Source: Clostridia bacterium
GTDB lineage: Bacteria; Bacillota; Clostridia; UMGS1883
Length of the DNA stretch: 64,000 bases
Direction: 5' to 3'
NCBI GenBank assembly: GCA_017505525.1
Contig: JAFVPB010000002.1
Coordinates: 163,508-227,507, forward strand
This document shows positions 688 through 53,174 of this stretch, piece after piece. The position numbers were made by a program, and so were the translations under genes. The stretch's first letter is position 1, and each line of letters begins with the position of its first letter. Below the pieces are notes generated by a model, which did no database searches, had not been told where the DNA came from, and saw only the letters and a list, made by a program, of their open reading frames with translations.

Positions 688-709
688 AAAATCACCCCTT
701 AAGATATAA

Positions 710-1558
710 CTAAACTATCCTGAATCCGTCGCCTATAATATCACTCGACGTTCCTATTATTGTAAAAGCCTTTTCATCAAGTGCTCTTATCTTATGCTTA
801 AGCCTTACTGCCTGGCGCTTATCCACCACGCAAACAAGCATTCTTTTTTTATCGCCCGTATAAACTCCCTCGCACCCGTTTATAATCGTCGCACCGCGGT
901 CGAGTTCGTTTGTGATAAACCTTGTAATTTCCGCTTCTTTCTCTGTGATAATAAGAAAAAACTTCGATGCATTAAACCCCTCAATCGCATTGTCTACAAC
1001 AAGCGAGCGCACCACAATTGCAAAAAGAGAAAACATTCCAAGCTCTGTTCCAAAAACGGCAATAGATGCACACACAACAAAAAAATCAACCACCAGAAGT
1101 GCTTTTCCTATGTCGAGCCCCGTATGTTTTTTTATTATAAGAGCCACAATATCCGTTCCGCCCGAGCTTGCTTCCTCGTTAAAAAGAATTGCCACTCCGA
1201 AAGAAACAAGTAGCATATCAAAGAAAAGCTCAAGCATTTTCTGGTTTGTAAGAGGGGCATTCATAGGCACAAAAGCTTCAAGTAAATTTAAAAGAATTGA
1301 ATAAAGAAGCGTTGAATACACTGTTTTCAGCGCAAACCCTTTTCCCAGCACAAGGTAACCCAGAAGAAGAAGCAAAAGATTAAGCATTGTTGCAATTCTG
1401 GCAGGAGAAATGTTCCCTGTCAGCTTGCTTAGGATAACAGAAGTTCCGCTTACTCCCCCTGTGGAAAAATTGTTTGCAAACTCGAAAAAATAAACGCCCA
1501 GTACAACAAGTATTGTGCCTAAAGTTATAAAGAAATAGGATTTTACTGTGCTTTTCAT
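710..1558 (-). CDS. YitT-family membrane protein (DUF161/DUF2179 type)
   Basis: ORF 710..1573. Multi-TM N-terminal part and a C-terminal DUF2179-like soluble domain (LIITEKEAEITRFI...GATIINGCEGVYTG). ATG at 1558 has a GAGGAG RBS; the 1573 start is a TTG without one. Confidence 0.8.
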   Translation of the reverse strand: MKSTVKSYFFITLGTILVVLGVYFFEFANNFSTGGVSGTSVILSKLTGNISPARIATMLNLLLLLLGYLVLGKGFALKTVYSTLLYSILLNLLEAFVPMNAPLTNQKMLELFFDMLLVSFGVAILFNEEASSGGTDIVALIIKKHTGLDIGKALLVVDFFVVCASIAVFGTELGMFSLFAIVVRSLVVDNAIEGFNASKFFLIITEKEAEITRFITNELDRGATIINGCEGVYTGDKKRMLVCVVDKRQAVRLKHKIRALDEKAFTIIGTSSDIIGDGFRIV

Positions 1559-12458: not shown

Positions 12459-12562
12459 GCGGAAGGGGCAAGCCCCTCCCCTACAAAGAAAAATAATATA
12501 AAAGAAAACCCGATAGGTTTTCAACCATCATTCCACATTCCGAACTCCGCATTTTGCATTTT

Positions 12563-12600
12563 AAAAAGGATGTAAAAACATAAGTTTTTACATCCTTTTT
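12563..12600 (-). terminator. Terminator at the end of the dcw/ftsZ transcription unit
   Basis: 15-bp stem aaaggatgtaaaaac / gtttttacatccttt with T-runs on both strands. Confidence 0.7.
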
Positions 12601-38000: not shown

Positions 38001-38858
38001 TTGGATATAAAAAATTTTGTGCTCAGCTATTATAAAAACGCCGCAGAAGGCTTTCACATTCAACGTGTGGAAAAACCAAATGAAGCAAAAAAATTGCATT
38101 CCCACGAATACTTTCAGATATATTACATTGAAAAAGGAGCTCTTACTCATTACGTGGAATCCTCTGCCTCGCGCCTTGTTGCGGGAGATATGTTTATAAT
38201 TCCTCCGGGAATAAATCACCGCATAGAGGAGGAACATCAAACAATTTTTTATTCATTTTCCTTTATGCCCGATAGTTTGGGGGAATCAGCAGCATCTAAT
38301 TCATTTGCCATAGATTTTTTAAGAAGACTATCTCACGATTCTACCATAAGGCCTAAAATCACACTGCCATACGACAAAGTGCTTTGCGTTGAAAACATTA
38401 TGGAAGAGATATATAAAGAATTTACCGAGCGCAATATATCGGGGAAAGATATTATACGCTCGTACGGAATAATACTTGTAACTATGTTTGCAAGAATTTA
38501 CTACGAATCTTCAAAAGCATCTATTATTTCTCATTTTGATGATTGCAGACAATTTGTACTTCATTGTGTGAGCTACATAGAAAACAATTATTTCCAGGAT
38601 ATACGCCTTGATAGCATGGTAAAGCTTTCTGCCGTTTCAAAAAGTAGTTTCTGCAAAATTTTCTCTGAAATAACCGGCTGCTCGTTTAATAAATATCTGA
38701 ATATGTGCCGTATCAGAAAATCAACAGAGTATATAAAAAGAGGCTATAAAATTACAGCTATATATGGGTTGTGCGGTTACAATGACTTTTCAACTTTTTA
38801 CCGCAATTTTAAAAATATAATTGGTGTTTCTCCCAGAGAATATGCAAAGGGAGTGTAA
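38001..38858 (+). CDS. AraC-family transcriptional regulator (cupin plus HTH), divergent from the AtuA-like operon
   Basis: TTG start with GGGAGGG RBS. C-terminal HTH (YGLCGYNDFSTFYRNFKNIIGVSPREY). Confidence 0.85.
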   Translation: MDIKNFVLSYYKNAAEGFHIQRVEKPNEAKKLHSHEYFQIYYIEKGALTHYVESSASRLVAGDMFIIPPGINHRIEEEHQTIFYSFSFMPDSLGESAASNSFAIDFLRRLSHDSTIRPKITLPYDKVLCVENIMEEIYKEFTERNISGKDIIRSYGIILVTMFARIYYESSKASIISHFDDCRQFVLHCVSYIENNYFQDIRLDSMVKLSAVSKSSFCKIFSEITGCSFNKYLNMCRIRKSTEYIKRGYKITAIYGLCGYNDFSTFYRNFKNIIGVSPREYAKGV

Positions 38859-38879
38859 AAACTAAGTTTTTACACTCCC
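38849..38879. terminator. Bidirectional hairpin terminator overlapping the AraC stop codon
   Basis: gggagtgtaaaaac-taa-gtttttacactccc, a 14-bp perfect stem. Confidence 0.6.
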
Positions 38880-38892
38880 TTGTTGTTATATT

Positions 38893-42710: not shown

Positions 42711-44801
42711 ATGCTGAAAAAAGAAAACAGATATGACTTTAAAAAAGAGCTTTTGCAAATTCACAAGAAAAATGTGCGAGACCATTCTCTTGTACCAAAC
42801 GAAAACGAGTTTGTGATAGCTGATAATTTCTATATCACTGTTCCGCGTGATGCAGACGACGTGATTTTAACTGCGGTGCGCGATTTTAACGATTACTTAT
42901 GGACTTCGATGAATGTATCATCTTCGCCCTCGTATACTGCAAGCGAAAACTGCATCAAAATCTCGTTAAATCAGGATATTGAAGATGCAAGCGGATATAT
43001 GGGCTACAGAATCACATTTTATGATAATTACATAACTCTTGAGGGCTACGATAATGTTGGCGTAGCTCAGGGACTTTATTTCCTTGAAGACTTAATGAAT
43101 TTAAGAAAAGCTCCTTATTTAAAGAAAAAGACCATTAAATCTAAGGCTATCTATGAATATCGTGCCGCTCAATCTCCGCTTGGTATGTTTGAGTTTACCG
43201 ATGAATGCCTCGCTATGATGGCACACCGTGGCTATAATATAATAAGCTTGTGGATAAAGGATGTTAACCTTACTAACCGAGATGATTATATAGATATGCC
43301 TCTTCTTTGTGAAAGAGCAGAAAAGTATGGTATTGGCATTATGATTATGCTTTATAAAAATCACTCTGCCCATCCCGACGACGAGGGCGCCGAGGAATTT
43401 TACGATAATATGTATGGTAAAATCTTTGAGGCATGCCCCAAGATTAGAGGCGTTTCCCTCATTGGCGAAGCAAATCATTTTTCAAGCCGCGACCCGCGCG
43501 CGGGAAAAGCTCCACATAGTGCTAATGTTATCGACAATATTCCCACAGGCAAAATGTCGCCGGGCTTCTTCCCCTGCAGCGACTATCCCGAGTGGGTTCG
43601 CCTTATACAAAAATGCATCCGCAAGCACAACAAAGATGCTATAATTACCTTCTCATCCTACAACTGGGGCTTAGCGCCTAAAGAGGCACGCGTTGAGCTG
43701 ATAAAAAATCTTCCTGAAGATATTTATCTTGCACTGGGCTGGGAAATGTATGAAAAGTTTAAAGTGGGCGATGCAACAATCGGCGTTGCCGACTATACGC
43801 TTCGTATTCCGGGGCCAAGCGAATATTTTAAGAGCGAAGCAGAGATTGCTAAACAGCGCGGAATGAAAGTTCTCGCTACTGTAAACAGCGCGGGAAGAAC
43901 TTGGGACTTTGGCGTTATTCCCTACGAGCCTATGCCGCATCAGTGGATCAAACGCTTCCGCAGTATGCTTGATGCAAGAGAAAACTACAACCTTTACGGC
44001 CTTAACGAATGTATACACTATGGCTTCCACCCTTCGTTTGTAAACGACCTTGAAAAGTGGGCAACATTTACCCACGAGGAAGGTCTGGAAGAAATTCTTG
44101 AGGCACTTTTGATAAGAGATTTCGAAGAAAAGAATTACAGCGAGGTTAACCGTGCCCTTGAAATCTGGAGCGAGGCAATACAGCACATTCCTCCGGCTTA
44201 CGAGCTTCAGTATGGTGCACTGAGAGTTGGCCCTGCCTACCCATTATGGCTTCGCGCCGATGGTGGCGGAAATAAAAAGCCTGATGATGCGGGTGCGATG
44301 TTCGGGCACTCGGGCATGTATACGGGAAGCTATTCAACGGGATTCTTTGATGAATACGATTCTCCCGGAAGACGTGTTCACGTAAATCTTCAGGGCATAA
44401 AAGAAACGGGGGCACTTCTTTTAGAGGGGCTTAATGTGCTTGAAGAAATAAAGGAGCCTAACGATAATCTTCTTCGCCTTATAAACCTCGGCAAATTTAT
44501 GTATCGCACTTGCATCACTGCCGAACACGTTATAAGAATTTATCTTTTAGTGCAGAAATCACTTGTTACTTATGATAAGGAAGCACGCCTTGCCTATGCC
44601 AAAGAAATGCGCGAAATACTTCTTGCTGAAAAAGATAACGTTGAAAAAACAATTCCCATTGTGCAACTCGATTCACGCCTTGGATGGGAGCCGAGCATGG
44701 AATATCAGTGCGACGAAAAGTGCTTAAGATGGAAGCTTCGCCAGCTTGAACACGAATTAAATATTTCGCTTTGGAGAATTGACGAAACAAATAAATATTG
44801 A
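42711..44801 (+). CDS. Hypothetical 696-aa cytoplasmic protein, putative glycoside hydrolase (family not recognised)
   Basis: AAGGAG RBS and no signal peptide. The N-terminal alpha/beta domain followed by a TIM-barrel-like region (GYNIISLWIKD...) is only suggestive. Confidence 0.5.
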   Translation: MLKKENRYDFKKELLQIHKKNVRDHSLVPNENEFVIADNFYITVPRDADDVILTAVRDFNDYLWTSMNVSSSPSYTASENCIKISLNQDIEDASGYMGYRITFYDNYITLEGYDNVGVAQGLYFLEDLMNLRKAPYLKKKTIKSKAIYEYRAAQSPLGMFEFTDECLAMMAHRGYNIISLWIKDVNLTNRDDYIDMPLLCERAEKYGIGIMIMLYKNHSAHPDDEGAEEFYDNMYGKIFEACPKIRGVSLIGEANHFSSRDPRAGKAPHSANVIDNIPTGKMSPGFFPCSDYPEWVRLIQKCIRKHNKDAIITFSSYNWGLAPKEARVELIKNLPEDIYLALGWEMYEKFKVGDATIGVADYTLRIPGPSEYFKSEAEIAKQRGMKVLATVNSAGRTWDFGVIPYEPMPHQWIKRFRSMLDARENYNLYGLNECIHYGFHPSFVNDLEKWATFTHEEGLEEILEALLIRDFEEKNYSEVNRALEIWSEAIQHIPPAYELQYGALRVGPAYPLWLRADGGGNKKPDDAGAMFGHSGMYTGSYSTGFFDEYDSPGRRVHVNLQGIKETGALLLEGLNVLEEIKEPNDNLLRLINLGKFMYRTCITAEHVIRIYLLVQKSLVTYDKEARLAYAKEMREILLAEKDNVEKTIPIVQLDSRLGWEPSMEYQCDEKCLRWKLRQLEHELNISLWRIDETNKY

Positions 44802-44823: not shown

Positions 44824-45150
44824 AAGGCTGAACGAAAAACGTTCAGCCTTCAGCGTGTCGATAAACCTATCGGCACGCTGGCAGACTGGGAAAAAGGAAG
44901 GTAAATCTGTTCAATACAAACTCGTCGGCGTACGATGGTACGATAGAGATTGTATTGAACAGAAGCAAACAAAAGTCCCTGAAAACCAAGTTTTCAGGGA
45001 CTTTCTTAACTTTTACTTTTTTGATAAAAATTGTATTGTTAACGGTTCGTCGAGGACGCCGAACCCTACAAAATTATAAAATTATAATTTTGTTTGTGGT
45101 TGACCGACTTTTTCGACGGTCTGAAGGCTGAACGAAAAACGTTCAGCCTT
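44824..45150. repeat. 327-bp hairpin-rich intergenic element bounded by two identical 27-nt terminator hairpins (MITE-like)
   Basis: aaggctgaacgaaaaacgttcagcctt occurs at 44824-44850 and 45124-45150. The adjoining cagcgtgtcga / tcgacggtctg are inverted, and at least five internal perfect or near-perfect hairpins are present. Confidence 0.6.
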
Positions 45151-45161
45151 TTTATTAAATT

Positions 45162-46985
45162 CTACTCCACTGTTACTGATTTTGCAAGGTTTTTCGGCTT
45201 ATCAATATTGCATCCCTTTTCCTTTGCAATATAATAGCTGAAGAGCTGAAGCGGAATTATTTCTGCAACTGAAACAAACATCGGATGTGTTTCGGGAATA
45301 GAAATAACGTTATCTGCTTCCTCGTAAATCTTATGATTATTTTCAAGAGCTACGGCTAAAACATTCGCACCTCTTGCCTTTACCTCTTTGATGTTTGACA
45401 TCATCTTATCAAAAAGAGATTCCTGACAACACGGTGCTACAACAAGGCTGTTTTCATCAACAAGCGCTATTGTTCCGTGCTTCAGTTCACCCGCAGCATA
45501 CGCTTCTGAATGAACATAAGAAATTTCCTTAAGCTTAAGCGAGCCTTCCATACAGATTGCATAGTCAATATTTCTGCCAATATAGAATACACTGTCGTAA
45601 TGACTATAGTTTTTCACAAAGTCTGCCATTTGTGCATTAAGGTCAAGTGAGCGTTGTGCTCTTTCGGGGATTGAACGAATAGCCTCAATGAGTTCATTAT
45701 ATTCAGTTTCTTCTATTTTATTTAAATGGTCTCCAAGCCAGAGTGCAAGCATATTCATAACTGCAAGCTGTGTTGTATATCCCTTTGATGTTGCAACAGC
45801 AATTTCAGGGCCTGCCCAGGTATATATAACGTAATCTGAAAGCTTTGCAATTGTGCTTCCAACAACATTTACCACACTAAGAACCGTTGCCCCTCTTTCC
45901 TTACATTCTTTCATAGCCGCAATAGTATCTGCCGTTTCTCCCGACTGACTAATTACAACTACAAGTGTTTTTTCATCTATTATAGGATTACGGTAACGAA
46001 GCTCACTTGCTAAATCAACCTCCACACTTATGCGGCACAATTCTTCAATCACAAATTTACCCACATATCCCGCATGGTATGCCGAGCCACATGCCGTAAT
46101 GATTATCTTATTTATATCCTTTATTTTTTCGCCCAAAGGCTCGAGTCCCTCAAAATGTATTTTATTATCCTTTATATTTGGCTCGATTGTAGATTTAAGT
46201 GCCTTTGGCTGCTCCATAATTTCTTTAAGCATAAAGTGCTCGTATCCGCCTTTTTCAGCAGCTTCAATGTCCCACACAACTCTTGAAACACTTTTTTTCA
46301 CACTTTTTCCTGTGCAATCAAAAACATCTATTTCGTCTGGTGTAATCTCTGCAAACTCTCCGTCTTCAATATATATTATATTTTTGGTTTTGCTTATAAG
46401 TGCCGTAACATCGGAAGCAAAGAAGTTTTCTCCTACGCCCACACCTATAATTAATGGTGAGCCGAGCTTGGCAGCAAACACACTCTTGGGAAATTCACTG
46501 CAAACAACTCCAAGAGCGTAAGACCCCTCAAGCCTTGATACAGTTTTCATAAGCGCTTTTCTAACATCGCCCTCATAGTAGTATTCTAAAAGATGTACTA
46601 CAACCTCTGTGTCGGTTTCGCTTTCAAAATTAAAACCTTTCCCCGCAAGCTCTTCTTTAAGCTCGATATAATTTTCTATTATACCGTTGTGCACAATAGC
46701 AAAGCGTCCGCTATTTGAAAGATGCGGATGAGCATTTATATCTGTGGGTGCTCCGTGAGTTGCCCAACGTGTGTGCCCTATTCCTGCACATCCGACTATA
46801 GTTTTTTCGCCAAGCTTTTCTACGAGATTATTTATCTCTCCGCTTGCCTTTACCATTGTTATTTTATTTTCATTATTTACCGCTATTCCTGAAGAATCGT
46901 ATCCTCTGTATTCAAGCCTTTTTAGCCCGCTTGTTAAAACGCTTACCGCGTCATCTTTACCTGTATAACCAACTATTCCGCACAT
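45162..46985 (-). CDS. glmS: Glutamine--fructose-6-phosphate aminotransferase GlmS
   Basis: MCGIVGY N-terminal nucleophile, two SIS domains and a C-terminal KSVTVE. Confidence 0.97.
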   Translation of the reverse strand: MCGIVGYTGKDDAVSVLTSGLKRLEYRGYDSSGIAVNNENKITMVKASGEINNLVEKLGEKTIVGCAGIGHTRWATHGAPTDINAHPHLSNSGRFAIVHNGIIENYIELKEELAGKGFNFESETDTEVVVHLLEYYYEGDVRKALMKTVSRLEGSYALGVVCSEFPKSVFAAKLGSPLIIGVGVGENFFASDVTALISKTKNIIYIEDGEFAEITPDEIDVFDCTGKSVKKSVSRVVWDIEAAEKGGYEHFMLKEIMEQPKALKSTIEPNIKDNKIHFEGLEPLGEKIKDINKIIITACGSAYHAGYVGKFVIEELCRISVEVDLASELRYRNPIIDEKTLVVVISQSGETADTIAAMKECKERGATVLSVVNVVGSTIAKLSDYVIYTWAGPEIAVATSKGYTTQLAVMNMLALWLGDHLNKIEETEYNELIEAIRSIPERAQRSLDLNAQMADFVKNYSHYDSVFYIGRNIDYAICMEGSLKLKEISYVHSEAYAAGELKHGTIALVDENSLVVAPCCQESLFDKMMSNIKEVKARGANVLAVALENNHKIYEEADNVISIPETHPMFVSVAEIIPLQLFSYYIAKEKGCNIDKPKNLAKSVTVE

Positions 46986-47008: not shown

Positions 47009-47671
47009 TTATTTCCTTTCAACAATGTTGTCTGCCTGTTTAACAATAGAGTTTTCAGGGTAAACTCCTCTTAAAGCTGTTAACGGATACACAGAGGTAG
47101 CTTTTCCGATAACTGTGCCCGGATTAAGCACACATCCGCATCCCACATCGGCATTATCGCCTAAAATTCCGCCTATTTTTCTAAGACCTGTCTCGTAGTC
47201 CTCATCTGAGTGGATCACAACGTTTTTTCCGTCTGCCTTAAGATTAGAGCAAACTGCACCTGCCCCCATATGAGCGTGATTTCCCAGAATGGAATCTCCC
47301 ACATAGTTGTAGTGAGGAACCTGCACCTTGTCAAGCAGAATGCTTGATTTAAGTTCGGTAGAATTTCCGATAACACAGTTTTTTCCTGTAATTACGTTTC
47401 CTCTTATATAAGCACCCGGTCTTATCTCGGTTCCCTCTCCTATTATTGTGGGGCCCTCTATTGTGGCAGTGGGGGAAATTTTTACGTTTTCTCCCACAAA
47501 AACATTTTCCTTAATTTCTGTAAACCCCTCTAATCCTTCATCTATAAGCTTTTTGATATAGCCTTTTATTTTCGGAAGTATTTCCCACGGATACTCGCTT
47601 TCAAGAAAAAGCTCTTTAAGATATGGAGTCTCGCAATCAAACAATTCCTGGGTTTTAATGCATTTATTCAA
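47009..47671 (-). CDS. Hexapeptide-repeat (left-handed beta-helix) transferase, GlmU C-terminal-domain-like
   Basis: Repeated [LIV]G..... hexapeptides (IGEGTEIRPGAYIRGNVITGKNCVIGNSTELK...). The only plausible start after the glmM stop is TTG 47671 with an AAGGGGG RBS. Confidence 0.65.
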   Translation of the reverse strand: MNKCIKTQELFDCETPYLKELFLESEYPWEILPKIKGYIKKLIDEGLEGFTEIKENVFVGENVKISPTATIEGPTIIGEGTEIRPGAYIRGNVITGKNCVIGNSTELKSSILLDKVQVPHYNYVGDSILGNHAHMGAGAVCSNLKADGKNVVIHSDEDYETGLRKIGGILGDNADVGCGCVLNPGTVIGKATSVYPLTALRGVYPENSIVKQADNIVERK

Positions 47672-49289
47672 CGCCGTGCCCCCTTTCCAATATAAGCTTT
47701 GCCAAACGTTCTGAATATTCAATACACTTTTCTTCTGATTCACTTTCAATCATAATTCTTATAACGGGCTCTGTTCCACTTTGGCGAAGAAGCACTCTTC
47801 CCTTTTTATTTATAAGCTTTTCTATTTCTGCTGCTTCCTTTAAAACTTCTTCATCGTTAAACACAGCTGTTTTATTTCTCACCTTCACATTCTTTGTATA
47901 TTGAGGATAAAGGCTGAGACCCTCTGTAAGATCAGACAGATTGGTCTTTTTATCGCAAACTTCTTCTGCAATCATTATAGCAGTTAAAAGACCGTCTCCC
48001 GTGGTGGCATACTTTTTAAGAATAATATGACCCGATTGCTCTCCGCCCAGGCAATAATCGTTTTCCTGCATACACTCGTAAACAAAGCGATCGCCAACCT
48101 TTGTCTGCTCGCATTTTATTCCGATTTTTTCAAGCGCGTTTATCAGCCCGCTATTACTCATTACCGTTGCAACAATAGTATCATTATTAAGGGTGCCGCG
48201 ATCCTTTAATCGTCTTCCAAGGATATAGAGCATTGCATCGCCGTCCACAACGTTTCCGTTTTCATCCACGGCAATACATCTGTCGGCATCGCCATCAAAT
48301 GCAAATCCCATATCAAGATGCTGCTCCTTAACGATTTTGCAAAGATTTTCAACGTGTGTGGAACCGCAATTGTAATTCACATTAAGGCCATCAGGCTCTG
48401 AGCCTGTAATTACCATTTGAGCACCTAAGGCACCGAAAAGCGCTTTGGCAATCATCCACGAAGCGCCGTTTGCACAATCAAGGCCGATTTTTAAGTTTTT
48501 ATAGGAATGAGATGCAATAGACATTAAATAGCCCATATATCGGTTTCTTCCCGAAACATAGTCTACAATGCAGCCTATTTTTTCGCGATGAGCAAGCGGC
48601 AAATCTTCTCCCGCTACTCCCAGAGAAGCTAAATCTCCATCGATATATGCTTCAATTAAATCAGTGGTATTATCATCAAGCTTTTCTCCGTGCTTGTTTA
48701 TTATCTTTATTCCGTTATCATAAAATGGGTTGTGAGATGCAGTTATCATTATTCCGCAGTCGAATTCATCCTGCCTTGTAACATAGGAAACGCTTGGTGT
48801 GGTTGTAACGTGAAGCATATATGCATCAGCACCCGATGCCGTAATGCCTGCAACAATAGAATATTCAAGCATATAGCTTGAGCGACGCGTATCTTTTCCC
48901 ACAACAATTCTCGGGCGGTATCCTACCTTGGTGCAGCCTGAAAGTTCGCTTGAATAATACCATCCCAAAAATCTTCCCACTCTATAGGCTTGCATAGAAG
49001 TAAGGGTTCTGTTAGCCTCGCCGCGGAAACCGTCTGTTCCGAAATACTTATTTTTCTCACGCGATCTTTTTGTAAGAACTATGTCGTCCTGCAGCAGCTC
49101 GTCGGTAGTAATTCCAAAGAGCGAGCACATCAAAAGGACCTTATCAAGTTGCGGCATTGCCTGATCCATTTCCCACTTTGAAACAGATTGCCTCGAAACC
49201 GAAATTTTTTCGGCAAGCTGCTCCTGCGACATATTCATATTCGTTCTTAGCTGAGTAATTTTTTCGCCTATTGTCATCTCTATCCCCAT
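47664..49289 (-). CDS. glmM: Phosphoglucosamine mutase GlmM fused to an N-terminal XRE-type helix-turn-helix domain
   Basis: Residues ~5-65, IGEKITQLRTNMNMSQEQLAEKISVSRQSVSKWEMDQAMPQLDKVLLMCSLFGITTDELL, form a Cro/C1-type HTH. They are followed by YFGTDGFRG and the phosphoserine loop TASHNP of GlmM. The start could be ATG 49289 or 49277. Confidence 0.85.
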   Translation of the reverse strand: MGIEMTIGEKITQLRTNMNMSQEQLAEKISVSRQSVSKWEMDQAMPQLDKVLLMCSLFGITTDELLQDDIVLTKRSREKNKYFGTDGFRGEANRTLTSMQAYRVGRFLGWYYSSELSGCTKVGYRPRIVVGKDTRRSSYMLEYSIVAGITASGADAYMLHVTTTPSVSYVTRQDEFDCGIMITASHNPFYDNGIKIINKHGEKLDDNTTDLIEAYIDGDLASLGVAGEDLPLAHREKIGCIVDYVSGRNRYMGYLMSIASHSYKNLKIGLDCANGASWMIAKALFGALGAQMVITGSEPDGLNVNYNCGSTHVENLCKIVKEQHLDMGFAFDGDADRCIAVDENGNVVDGDAMLYILGRRLKDRGTLNNDTIVATVMSNSGLINALEKIGIKCEQTKVGDRFVYECMQENDYCLGGEQSGHIILKKYATTGDGLLTAIMIAEEVCDKKTNLSDLTEGLSLYPQYTKNVKVRNKTAVFNDEEVLKEAAEIEKLINKKGRVLLRQSGTEPVIRIMIESESEEKCIEYSERLAKLILERGHGVE

Positions 49290-49311
49290 CCTTTTTATTT
49301 ATCATAGTTTG

Positions 49312-49340
49312 ATTATACGCCTGTAAACTCTCGTTTACAA
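49312..49340 (-). promoter_or_regulatory. glmM operon promoter with an embedded 7-4-7 palindrome
   Basis: Minus strand TTGTAA (49340-49335), 17 nt, TATAAT (49317-49312). The palindrome TGTAAAC-gaga-GTTTACA (49339-49322) fills the -35/spacer region. Confidence 0.5.
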
Positions 49341-49657
49341 TCAACTCTTCCTTGAAGTTTAAGCAACCCCAGGTTGCGATATTTGATTTTTTCGCTTATA
49401 TTTCTCTTGTTTTTTAGGTTTTTTGTTTTATTTTTGCAAACTTTTCTTTTCATTCTTTCTTTTTTATTATATTCTCCGCAATTGTAAAATATCCTTTTTT
49501 TTACATATGTTGAGTGAAAAAAACAAAAAAACATTGCAATCACACTAAAAGTAGTGTATTATATACTTGGATAGCCGAAAGCGAAAATCCGCCTCTGAAA
49601 ATCGGAGCTTGGACCATTCTTTTTCGGCACAAAACACAAGGTGAAGAGGTGTATATT

Positions 49658-50917
49658 TTGGAAAAACTTAATATCACAGGCGGAAATCCTCTTTTTGGCG
49701 AGATTGCCGTTTGCGGCGCTAAAAATGCCGCCGTAGCAATTATCCCGGCAGCCCTTCTTGTCAATGGCGTATGTATTATAGAAAACGTTCCCGACATTAA
49801 AGATGTCAGACTTATTATAGAAATGCTTGTGCAGCTCGGCGCAAGAGTTACCTACATTAACGATACAACTATCAGCGTAGACAGTACAAGATTAAAAACC
49901 CATATTGCTCCTGTTGAGCTGGCAAGCAAAATGAGAGCAAGCTACTATCTTTTAGGCGCTCTTTTAGGACGATTGAACAAAGCTCAGGTGGCACTCCCGG
50001 GCGGATGTAATTTTGGGGTAAGACCTATCGATCTGCACGAAAAAGGTTTCCGTGCTCTTGGAGCTACTGTTGAAATCACAGACGGCATAGTTTATGTTAA
50101 TGCAGACCACCTTACAGGAGATAATGTATTTTTAGATACAACAAGTGTTGGTGCTACAATTAATATTATGCTTGCCGCAGTGCTTGCAGATGGGAAAACA
50201 GTTATTGAAAATGCCGCTAAAGAGCCTCACATTGTTGATGTGGCGAACTTTTTGAATGCTATGGGCGCAAAAGTTCGCGGTGCAGGAACCGACGTTATAA
50301 GAATTACAGGGGTTAAGGAAATGACCGGCGGAAGCTACAGCATTATTCCCGACCAGATTGAGGCGGGTACTTTTATGCTTCTCGCTGCAGCATCGGGCGG
50401 AGATGTGCTTGTAAGAAATATTATTCCAAAGCATATGGATTGCCTTGTTTCAAAGCTTGAAGAAATGGGCGTTAATATAACGGAATACGATGATTCCATA
50501 CGAATTTCACGCACAGGCGAGCTTCGTGGAACCTCGGTAAGAACGATGCCGTACCCCGGCTTTCCTACCGATCTTCAGCCCCAGATGGTTGCCCTTTTAT
50601 CTACGGTTAAAGGCAGAAGTACAGTTATTGAGGACGTGTGGGACAATAGATTTCAGTATGTTGCCGAGCTTTTAAAGATGGACGCCGATATAACAGTTAA
50701 CGGTAAGCGTGCCGAAATACAGGGCAAAAAGCTTCGTGGAGCGCTTGTGCAGGCTACCGACCTGAGGGCAGGCGCCGCTATGATTATAGCAGGTGTTGCA
50801 GCCGAGGGTGTAACGCAAATCGGATGCCCTCATTATATCGACAGAGGATATACCGATATTGAACGCAGATTGCGCTCAATAGGCGTGAAGATAGAACGAG
50901 TATTTGAGGAAGATTAA
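49658..50917 (+). CDS. murA: UDP-N-acetylglucosamine 1-carboxyvinyltransferase (MurA paralogue 2)
   Basis: GAKNAAVAIIPAA, PGGCNFGVRPIDLH and YPGFPTDLQ. TTG at 49658 with GAAGAGGTG RBS; the 48-aa extension in the track is non-homologous. Confidence 0.92.
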   Translation: MEKLNITGGNPLFGEIAVCGAKNAAVAIIPAALLVNGVCIIENVPDIKDVRLIIEMLVQLGARVTYINDTTISVDSTRLKTHIAPVELASKMRASYYLLGALLGRLNKAQVALPGGCNFGVRPIDLHEKGFRALGATVEITDGIVYVNADHLTGDNVFLDTTSVGATINIMLAAVLADGKTVIENAAKEPHIVDVANFLNAMGAKVRGAGTDVIRITGVKEMTGGSYSIIPDQIEAGTFMLLAAASGGDVLVRNIIPKHMDCLVSKLEEMGVNITEYDDSIRISRTGELRGTSVRTMPYPGFPTDLQPQMVALLSTVKGRSTVIEDVWDNRFQYVAELLKMDADITVNGKRAEIQGKKLRGALVQATDLRAGAAMIIAGVAAEGVTQIGCPHYIDRGYTDIERRLRSIGVKIERVFEED

Positions 50918-52247: not shown

Positions 52248-53174
52248 TCACTCGTGTTCTTCAAAGAATATATATGTATATCCGTTCTCCCAAAGCGTTC
52301 TTGCAGCTGCAAGCACTTTTGCACCATAGTCAGGCTGATAATTGTAGTAGTCCTTATAAAAATATTGCTCGTGAGTTACGTGCCCGATATATTCCTTGCC
52401 AACATTTGCTTTAATGCCGTTTACCAGATACTCTTCATCGCAGAGATTAAGACAAGGAGCATTTGAAGTAAGCGCAAATCTCATTTTCGTTTCTTCATCG
52501 GGAATTGTTTTTGTGTTATAGAGGATAGATTCTCTTTCTTCAGTGGTAATGTGATTATATCCGCAAATAGAATTATCAATCGCTTTATTAAGTCCACCTC
52601 TTTGGTAAAGCATAGTTTCGGGCTTTCTGTTGTGAAGAAGGCGTGCTGCGTGGCCGTATGGCAGAGAATTAGGGTCACCATTATATTCCCTTTTTTCTCC
52701 CGCCGAACAACAAAGCACCTTTATTCCGCCATCGTAAAGAGCACGTACCGCATCTTTGCTTATGGGCATCCAGTGCGGAAGCACGCTTTTTGCAAAAGCT
52801 TTTTCGCCTGCAAAACGCACAACTTCTTTTTTAAGAGCATCAAAATCTCGTTTCACATCGTCGTAATCTGCATTGATATACGGATAATCGGGAAATTCCT
52901 GCTTTGCATGGAAGGCAAGTCTCAGCCAGTCGGAGGCTTCTTCCCATTCTTTTTTATAGGCATCCGTCATATCGGCGAGAGTGAATTCCTCTTCCCCATA
53001 GAAAAAGTCTGTACGGTAAAAACAGTTAAGCTGAACCTTCATTCCGTATTTATCGTGTGCCTCTTTTAACAACGCCAGAAACGGATTATCAAACATTGAT
53101 TTTGGTCTTTCACGTGTTAAATCGCGGAAAACCCAGATAGTATCATCAATTAAAAAACAAGCCTCTCTTTTCAT
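52248..53174 (-). CDS. Conserved hypothetical protein, copy 2 (paralogue of 36938..37870)
   Basis: Full-length similarity to the 36938..37870 product, including GDPNSLPYGHA.RLL.NRKPE and H.KQEFPDYPYINA.Y.DVK. Confidence 0.7.
   Translation of the reverse strand: MKREACFLIDDTIWVFRDLTRERPKSMFDNPFLALLKEAHDKYGMKVQLNCFYRTDFFYGEEEFTLADMTDAYKKEWEEASDWLRLAFHAKQEFPDYPYINADYDDVKRDFDALKKEVVRFAGEKAFAKSVLPHWMPISKDAVRALYDGGIKVLCCSAGEKREYNGDPNSLPYGHAARLLHNRKPETMLYQRGGLNKAIDNSICGYNHITTEERESILYNTKTIPDEETKMRFALTSNAPCLNLCDEEYLVNGIKANVGKEYIGHVTHEQYFYKDYYNYQPDYGAKVLAAARTLWENGYTYIFFEEHE

Follow-up and report, generated by a model that had tools for sequence, protein, structure and literature searches.

In a 64,000-nt stretch of contig JAFVPB010000002.1 (assembly GCA_017505525.1, a Clostridia bacterium; positions 163,508–227,507), hereafter the window, the gene for phosphoglucosamine mutase (GlmM) encodes an additional N-terminal helix-turn-helix (HTH) domain of the Cro/C1 (XRE) family. 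We propose that this protein, HTH-GlmM, is a bifunctional trigger enzyme, in which an intact mutase and an XRE HTH would together control the operon that encodes them, with a tandem pair of palindromes, A1 and A2, as its promoter unit; we give this reading a probability of about 0.65. The fusion itself is genuine, and not an artefact, in a large group of uncultured Clostridia from herbivore guts. As judged from sequence comparisons, autoregulation of the operon likely proceeds mainly via a palindrome other than the one emphasized in a preliminary description of this DNA (49322–49339), and the best-supported operator candidate lies 24–55 bp further upstream. The palindrome at 49322–49339 is a second candidate operator, specific to glmM.

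The likely start of HTH-GlmM is the ATG at 49277, directly after GGATGGGGA, and the translation of 537 residues from this codon is identical to database protein P0001. The N-terminal domain matches Pfam HTH_3 (PF01381) over residues 13–65 (8.7e-14; 51.7 bits compared to a gathering score of 23), and its closest solved relatives are ImmR of ICEBs1 (7t8i) and P22 C2. In an AlphaFold2 model, it folds into five confident helices with a predicted local distance difference test score (pLDDT) of 85–90. Domains I–IV of the PGM_PMM family (PF02878, PF02879, PF02880 and PF00408) all follow the HTH in order. The enzyme portion exceeds the cut-off of the TIGR01455 equivalog model (score of 496.1; cut-off 447.55) and matches GlmM of B. 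subtilis (7ojr; 3.9e-116) in an alignment that begins at KYFGTDG. The GTDGFRG, TASHNP, DGDADR, GGEQSGH and SGTEP loops are all present. The GlmM portion looks catalytically intact, and is predicted from these motifs to interconvert glucosamine 6-phosphate (GlcN-6-P) and glucosamine 1-phosphate (GlcN-1-P). The preliminary description had read an HTH and a complete GlmM in one continuous frame, and the single reading frame and its domain matches bear this out.

The linker between the two parts is variable, with 14–20 residues. The junction, ...EKNKYFGTDGFRG (NKYFGTDG), is free of any nearby in-frame ATG, GTG or TTG. Thus, no HTH-less GlmM is expected from this gene, and each GlmM molecule produced from it would bear the HTH. 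As in a trigger enzyme, enzyme and DNA-binding domain reside on one polypeptide from a single open reading frame, from which the enzyme alone cannot be made. Among 78 full-length orthologues, the mean pairwise identity is 0.78 for the HTH and 0.79 for the enzyme, compared to 0.35 for the linker, whose length ranges over ∼5 residues. Since the HTH is conserved to the same extent as the enzyme, both halves are under purifying selection. The catalytic loops (phosphoserine, metal-binding DGDxDR, sugar and phosphate) are 96–100% conserved in these orthologues, known variable positions aside.

The preliminary description had left assembly support for the fusion, and the occurrence of the architecture among homologues, to be checked; both turned out in its favor. 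Independent assemblies of three datasets yielded the identical protein, which occurs on 7 contigs (an ENA metagenome and Logan assemblies of public sequencing runs). All of the 120 best database clusters carry HTH and PGM domains (77–100% identity, 535–563 residues). A scan with one genome per species identified 128 genomes with relatives, 80 of which were kept, and in every one of these 80 the relative covers residues 1–130 of HTH-GlmM. The 80 genomes are metagenome-assembled genomes (MAGs) from the guts of ruminants, horse and other herbivores, and are labelled Oscillospiraceae, Acutalibacteraceae or “Clostridia”. A search of a 50%-identity representative library with the N-terminal 130 residues returned mostly fragments and multi-HTH proteins, together with the distant fusion fragments P0131–P0133. 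Full-length distant fusions were found in metagenomes (loci L084–L086), with 54–60% identity to P0131 in the N-terminal region. NCBI labels the HTH-GlmM proteins simply as “phosphoglucosamine mutase”, and our literature searches for an HTH-GlmM fusion, a GlmM with an XRE domain or GlmM as a trigger enzyme found no description.

The promoter previously proposed for the gene (P1; TTGTAA-17-TATAAT, 49340–49312) is indeed the best sigma-70-like match of the region, with a score of 10/12. In 74 of 78 loci, an equivalent promoter keeps a set distance to A1, with a mean score of 9.7/12 and a –35 hexamer that begins 37–38 nt after the start of A1. Comparison of the upstream regions of 81 loci revealed two conserved classes of palindrome, motif A (GCAAC-N5-GTTGC) and motif B. 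A1 is exact in 67 of the 81 loci, and nearly all others contain 1–2 mismatches. CAAC-N5-GTTG has 79 matches in 799 kb of these loci, 70 of which fall in the 270 nt that precede the fusion gene; the remaining 9 agree with chance (∼12 expected). The full GCAAC-N5-GTTGC is confined to the promoter zone (54 of 54 occurrences), and versions with N4 or N6 spacing, or with everted arms, are not enriched in the same 799 kb. The sole CAAC-N5-GTTG of the window is A1 itself (49363–49377). Motif A was not found upstream of separately transcribed glmS genes or elsewhere in the flanks.

The arms of A1 are invariant, the central 5 nt vary freely, and T and A tracts prolong the symmetry. This combination of invariant arms and a variable center is the signature of a protein site rather than of a hairpin or terminator. 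A2 follows 22–23 bp downstream of A1 with the consensus tCAAn-N5-nGTTGn; based on an anchored alignment and half-site counts, its right half is GTTGn in most loci and its left half is TCAAn. An intrinsic terminator or RNA hairpin at A1 was considered and rejected, as the stem has T tracts before it and A tracts after it on either strand, and the arms are devoid of compensatory changes.

The distribution of the two motifs among relatives of the HTH suggests which of them belongs to it. A metagenome scan identified 80 loci of the HTH subfamily, a Clostridial one whose recognition helix reads (V/I)(S/T)RQS(V/I)SKWE, and 75 of these are non-GlmM proteins. At the C-terminus, most of those inspected have transmembrane segments, L091 has a Zn-ribbon and L134 has SepF. 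Of the 80 loci, 55 have motif A in the A1–A2–(–35) layout seen at HTH-glmM and at a comparable distance from the start codon; 52 of these belong to the 75 non-GlmM members. Across the subfamily, 58 matches are located in the 19.7 kb of upstream zone, compared to 11 in 456 kb elsewhere. As motif A accompanies the HTH whatever the fusion partner, the fused HTH likely uses A as its operator, and the genes that carry this HTH are likely autoregulated; no other line of evidence supports these two points as strongly. Motif B was found at none of the 75 non-GlmM loci, which leaves unproven that it belongs to the fused HTH. Within the flanks scanned (∼800 kb), the conserved A and B candidate operators are limited to the promoter of glmM, the acetyltransferase gene described below and, in some loci, glmS; self-regulation is thus the most economical reading.

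Two members of the subfamily illustrate the range of partners. L134 encodes an HTH joined to SepF (932–1387, plus strand; PF04472, 4.4e-16) with a candidate operator at approximately –97, and L091 encodes an HTH joined to Zn_ribbon_2 (692–1135, plus strand) with a candidate operator at –91; both have the same layout of A1, second site and –35. The promoter-operator-HTH unit looks portable.

The palindrome of the preliminary description, TGTAAAC-gaga-GTTTACA, was correctly located at 49339–49322 across the –35 and spacer. Perfect 7-N4-7 inverted repeats occur 19 times in the window, so it is unremarkable alone, and it gains meaning from its conservation across species. TGTAAA-N6-TTTACA with at most 1 mismatch is found within 320 nt upstream in 33 loci, compared to 8 matches in 786 kb elsewhere, an enrichment of ∼120-fold that is seen with the N6 spacing only. 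Of 78 loci, 67 contain the relaxed form GYAAA-N6-TTTRC (half-sites GTAAA, 65; GCAAA, 26), mainly 73–75 bp upstream of A1. The distance of ∼74 bp between the centers of B and A1 corresponds to seven helical turns. The right arm of the upstream B, TTTACA, is often the –35 of an upstream promoter-like site, and a –10 follows by 16–18 nt in 11 of 27 cases, compared to 1–6 at shifted control offsets. The B site lies in the proximal promoter in the window, in the clade of L043, L045, L050, L051 and L059, and in the distant fusion L088. Of the upstream copy, a degenerate form or nothing remains in the window, L045, L050, L051 and L059, and L043 keeps part of it. Judged by these patterns, B is a real, selected element, always over a –35, which has moved between promoters. 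Motif B was not found upstream of the separately transcribed glmS genes of L054, L067, L075 and L080, or elsewhere in the flanks.

Known boxes of similar sequence were compared with B. The 17-bp TnrA/GlnR-type box (TGTNA-N7-TNACA) was rejected because its spacing corresponds to N5, a version that shows no enrichment. A general CcpA cre-var element was also rejected, as it is not enriched outside the HTH-glmM promoter; its matches in the window at 12571 and 38854 are terminator hairpins. These two hairpins, each between convergent genes (12560–12600 and 38850–38885), have stems of 13–14 bp that resemble the B arms and share the stem core (G)TGTAAAAAC-loop-GTTTTTACA(C). The features of the HTH-glmM region are listed in Table 1.

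Table 1. Positions of the genes, protein parts, promoter and candidate regulatory sites in the HTH-glmM region (window coordinates; operator sequences in gene orientation where stated)
Feature	Position	Strand	Description
HTH-glmM open reading frame	47664..49289	–	Continuous
HTH-GlmM coding sequence	47664..49277	–	537 residues plus stop; from the reading frame, Pfam, TIGR01455 and domain conservation
HTH	49092–49277		Residues 1–62
Linker	49050–49091		Residues 63–76
GlmM			Residues 77–537
Promoter P1	49312..49340	–	–35 TTGTAA (49340–49335), 17-nt spacer, –10 TATAAT (49317–49312)
Candidate operator A1	49363..49377		GCAACCTGGGGTTGC (gene orientation); center approximately –65 from the predicted start site
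Candidate operator A2	49341..49355		TCAAGGAAGAGTTGA; weaker copy 22 bp downstream of A1, abutting the –35; center approximately –43
Candidate operator B, core	49322..49339		TGTAAAC-gaga-GTTTACA; perfect palindrome over the –35 and spacer of P1
Upstream B site, degenerate	49435..49452		TGAAAAGAAAAGTTTGCA (gene orientation); 2 mismatches; 74-bp offset upstream of A1
Left-handed beta-helix protein	47009..47671	–	220 residues; start overlaps the glmM stop
glmS (GlcN-6-P synthase)	45162..46985	–	Pfam GATase_6/7 and SIS; begins 24 nt past the beta-helix gene
Terminator-like hairpin, strong	44971..45005		16-bp stem, T tracts on both strands

Two readings of B differ in the protein that occupies it. 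The preliminary description held that the fused HTH binds TGTAAAC-N4-GTTTACA in the –35 and spacer and represses the operon directly from there, which we regard as possible, on the unlikely side. A palindrome over the core promoter is in the classic position for a repressor, the B class is conserved and confined to the HTH-glmM promoter, and the locus does not consistently encode any other DNA-binding protein. Binding of the same protein to both motifs would fit the resemblance of the B half-sites GTAAA and GCAAA to the A half-site GCAAC, as well as the hybrid A1 sites in L023, L065 and L081 and the site of B type that takes the place of A1 in L085. However, the other members of the HTH subfamily have A in 52 of 75 cases and B in none, the spacing is N6 for B compared to N5 for A, and most lineages have B not inside the proximal promoter but ∼110 bp upstream of it. 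The conservation of the palindrome class stands, and comparison across loci ties the HTH itself to A instead. A separate factor encoded elsewhere, such as a LacI/CcpA-type protein that recognizes a cre-var site (TGTAAA-Yx-TTTACA), may instead occupy B and leave the HTH at A1 and A2 only; we hold this, too, as a tentative minority view. The cre-var core of C. acetobutylicum CcpA is TGTAAA/TTTACA, and a version with a 6-nt spacer is bound as well as the native one with 15 nt (PMC5263246). The 6-bp core arms of the palindrome at 49322–49339 are identical to this core, the other HTH-subfamily members are without B, and B invariably covers a hexamer resembling a –35, as expected of a generic repressor site. 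In contrast to cre-var spacers, which range from 0 to 40 nt, the spacer at HTH-glmM is strictly 6 nt, and TGTAAA-N0-40-TTTACA is not enriched in the 786 kb of flanks (13 found compared to ∼11.5 expected). The sites are limited to one promoter, the two other matches in the window are the terminator hairpins mentioned above, and no B site precedes the separate glmS genes, so the spread-out, variable-spacer sites of cre-var are not seen. Furthermore, B keeps a fixed phase of 74 bp with A1, which speaks for a dedicated nucleoprotein arrangement.

Two other explanations concern the protein itself. The GlmM portion might serve solely as a ligand sensor, with catalysis lost or unneeded and a separate canonical GlmM encoded elsewhere in the genome. 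Enzyme-derived sensor domains fused to XRE-type domains are known, as exemplified by BzdR (PMC3602430), and our view of the genome is limited to 64 kb. This explanation is improbable, as the phosphoserine, metal, sugar and phosphate loops are invariant in 78 sequences, the TIGR01455 cut-off is exceeded, HTH-glmM is translationally coupled to the next enzyme of the pathway in ∼60 of 80 loci and the NCBI annotation is plainly that of the enzyme. An assembly or frameshift artefact, or an HTH that is a decaying and functionless remnant, was considered as a general precaution with one metagenomic window, and nothing was found in its favor. It is effectively refuted by the identical protein from independent assemblies, by the single frame kept in >200 database clusters and in 85 loci, and by the conservation of the HTH, which equals that of the enzyme.

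Several observations weigh against a trigger enzyme that acts through A1 and A2. No recognizable A site is present in 23 of the 75 non-GlmM subfamily members, and the fusion locus L032 lacks both motifs. The absence of B from all 75 argues that the HTH is not by itself enough to specify B. The full-length AlphaFold2 model, based on 43 homologues, is poor (mean pLDDT of 68.5), with the enzyme portion badly modelled, and is uninformative on contacts between HTH and enzyme. Every carrier organism is an uncultured MAG. A second glmM was looked for and not found within the 64-kb window, which is all that this search covered. Finally, the A sites are upstream of the –35 and not over the core promoter, and activation of the lambda cI/PRM kind fits this position equally with repression. 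Of the earlier claim that the enzyme directly represses its own operon, self-regulation stands as the most economical reading, with repression as one of the two signs that the position allows.

The trigger-enzyme reading suggests the following mechanism. GlmM is a dimer in solved structures, and the flexible linkers could let such a dimer position two HTHs on each A palindrome. Occupancy of the HTH would then set the transcription of glmM, of the GlcN-1-P acetyltransferase gene and, in the window, of glmS, which encode the first steps towards UDP-N-acetylglucosamine (UDP-GlcNAc). As every GlmM molecule would bear the HTH, and GlmM should far outnumber a typical regulator, DNA binding is expected to be weak or gated. 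The gate may be the state of the enzyme, such as the substrate-bound or phosphoserine form. From their centers at approximately –65 and –43, A1 and A2 could block contacts of RNA polymerase or activate in a manner similar to lambda cI. B, over the –35, would most likely be a repressing input, either by HTH-GlmM at high concentration, comparable to lambda OR3, or by another factor.

The left-handed beta-helix (LbH) protein encoded directly downstream matches TIGR03992 (3.6e-46) at model positions 209–390, the acetyltransferase half of the archaeal-type GlmU, and Sulfolobus ST0452 (PDB 2ggo and 5z09; 1e-25). It is probably a stand-alone GlmU-type GlcN-1-P N-acetyltransferase, based on these matches. 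Its gene immediately follows HTH-glmM in ∼60 of 80 loci, mostly with overlapping stop and start codons, and also in the distant fusion L084. The conservation of this pair indicates a module that spans the conversion of GlcN-6-P to GlcN-1-P and then, probably, to N-acetylglucosamine 1-phosphate. As glmM is translationally coupled to a gene for the acetyltransferase half alone, GlmU may be split in this clade; no uridylyltransferase half was found.

In the window, glmS is the third gene of the series, and the hairpin downstream of it is probably the end of the operon. glmS directly follows the LbH gene only in the window, L031 and L082; in L054, L067, L075 and L080, one gene separates the two, and the copy in L054 contains a NagB-type domain (PF01182). 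Membership of glmS in the operon is limited to the window lineage and a few others. No glmS ribozyme (RF00234) was matched by Rfam in the window, where a scan at gathering thresholds returned tRNAs only, or in 12 related loci, 6 of which contain glmS. Genes for NagB-type glucosamine-6-phosphate deaminases (PF01182) adjoin the HTH-glmM operon in two separate lineages (L054:8317–9027, plus strand; L084:3064–3903, minus strand), and in the distant fusion L084 the nagB-like gene is divergent from the operon. Synthesis and breakdown of GlcN-6-P are, therefore, linked at the locus in these lineages. The preliminary description had seen no adjacent cdaA or cdaR, and we likewise found neither within 6 kb of HTH-glmM.

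The neighbors of HTH-glmM in the window encode MurA, a metallo-beta-lactamase-fold protein, a SPOUT methyltransferase, the LbH protein, GlmS, a 696-residue protein and AraC-type regulators. The upstream neighbor differs between loci, and a divergent murA is found only in the window, where the two genes share an intergenic region of 380 nt (49278–49657). The start of murA is probably the TTG at 49658 (MEKLNITGG...), and not the GTG at 49514. A plus-strand promoter-like sequence, TTGCGA-17-TATATT (49374–49402), overlaps A1, so that murA could be co-regulated in the window. The same intergenic region contains a further TGTAAA-N11-TTTACA at 49483–49505. Two open reading frames that flank the region are without a Pfam or NCBIfam match (696 residues, 42711–44801, plus strand; 308 residues, 52248–53174, minus strand). 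In one related MAG, a match to the Gut-1 small RNA (RF01706) is located a few kb upstream of the fusion gene (L045:1610–1689, minus strand).

PutA, BirA and NadR are trigger enzymes with a built-in DNA-binding domain. HTH-GlmM shares with them a metabolic enzyme and a DNA-binding domain on one polypeptide and, as predicted here, a target in the promoter of its own pathway. It differs in the use of a Cro/C1 (XRE) HTH instead of a ribbon-helix-helix or winged helix. With lambda cI, P22 C2 and ImmR it has in common the XRE HTH and a strong and a weak palindrome, 22 bp apart beside the –35, at approximately –65 and –43. A1, A2 and the extra palindrome over the core promoter of the window recall OR1, OR2 and OR3 of lambda at PRM. 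Unlike these regulators, HTH-GlmM has no phage or mobile-element context, and its C-terminal partner is a housekeeping enzyme rather than a domain for oligomerization or cleavage.

BzdR consists of a DNA-binding domain at the N-terminus, a linker and a shikimate-kinase-like domain; its enzyme activity had to be lost for it to become a regulator, and the authors argue that enzymes recruit DNA-binding domains (PMC3602430). Whereas the kinase-like domain of BzdR has lost catalysis, HTH-GlmM keeps all catalytic residues, and thus resembles a natural version of the bifunctional intermediate that was built artificially in the BzdR work (PMC3602430). The canonical GlmM of Firmicutes is encoded in a cdaA-cdaR-glmM context and inhibits the cyclic di-AMP (c-di-AMP) cyclase (PMC6368335). 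HTH-GlmM agrees with it in fold, motifs and place in UDP-GlcNAc synthesis, but has an N-terminal HTH and a stand-alone GlmU-type acetyltransferase as partner, without nearby cdaA or cdaR. The lack of a detectable ribozyme in the window and the 12 related loci also departs from the usual glmS arrangement in Firmicutes.

A broader interpretation, which we consider speculative and rather unlikely, is that the promoter, the tandem GCAAC-N5-GTTGC and the XRE HTH form a portable cassette for self-regulation in gut Clostridia that was grafted onto unrelated proteins, housekeeping ones such as GlmM and SepF among them. On GlmM, this cassette would work as a lambda-like switch, with A1 and A2 activating, B shutting the promoter off at high occupancy and DNA binding gated by the catalytic or phosphorylation state of the enzyme, and would replace the glmS ribozyme in this clade. 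If so, the flux of hexosamine phosphates would directly set the transcription of the entry steps of UDP-GlcNAc synthesis. Apart from this interpretation, one HTH-plus-operator unit recurs at fusions to GlmM, SepF, a Zn-ribbon and membrane sensors, which would amount to a modular way for genes to gain autoregulation.

The essential enzyme GlmM acts at the entry to peptidoglycan synthesis and, in the Firmicutes studied, is known as a regulator of c-di-AMP synthesis by protein-protein contact and not as a binder of DNA. The operators predicted for HTH-GlmM are short and defined (49341–49377 and 49322–49339). Its regulation, if it takes the form proposed here, suggests how a clade without a glmS ribozyme at these loci could balance its hexosamine supply. 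HTH-GlmM would also be a natural example of the intermediate in which an enzyme recruits a DNA-binding domain. An operator-matched HTH on GlmM would, if true, bring a cell-wall enzyme that is essential into the small group of trigger enzymes.

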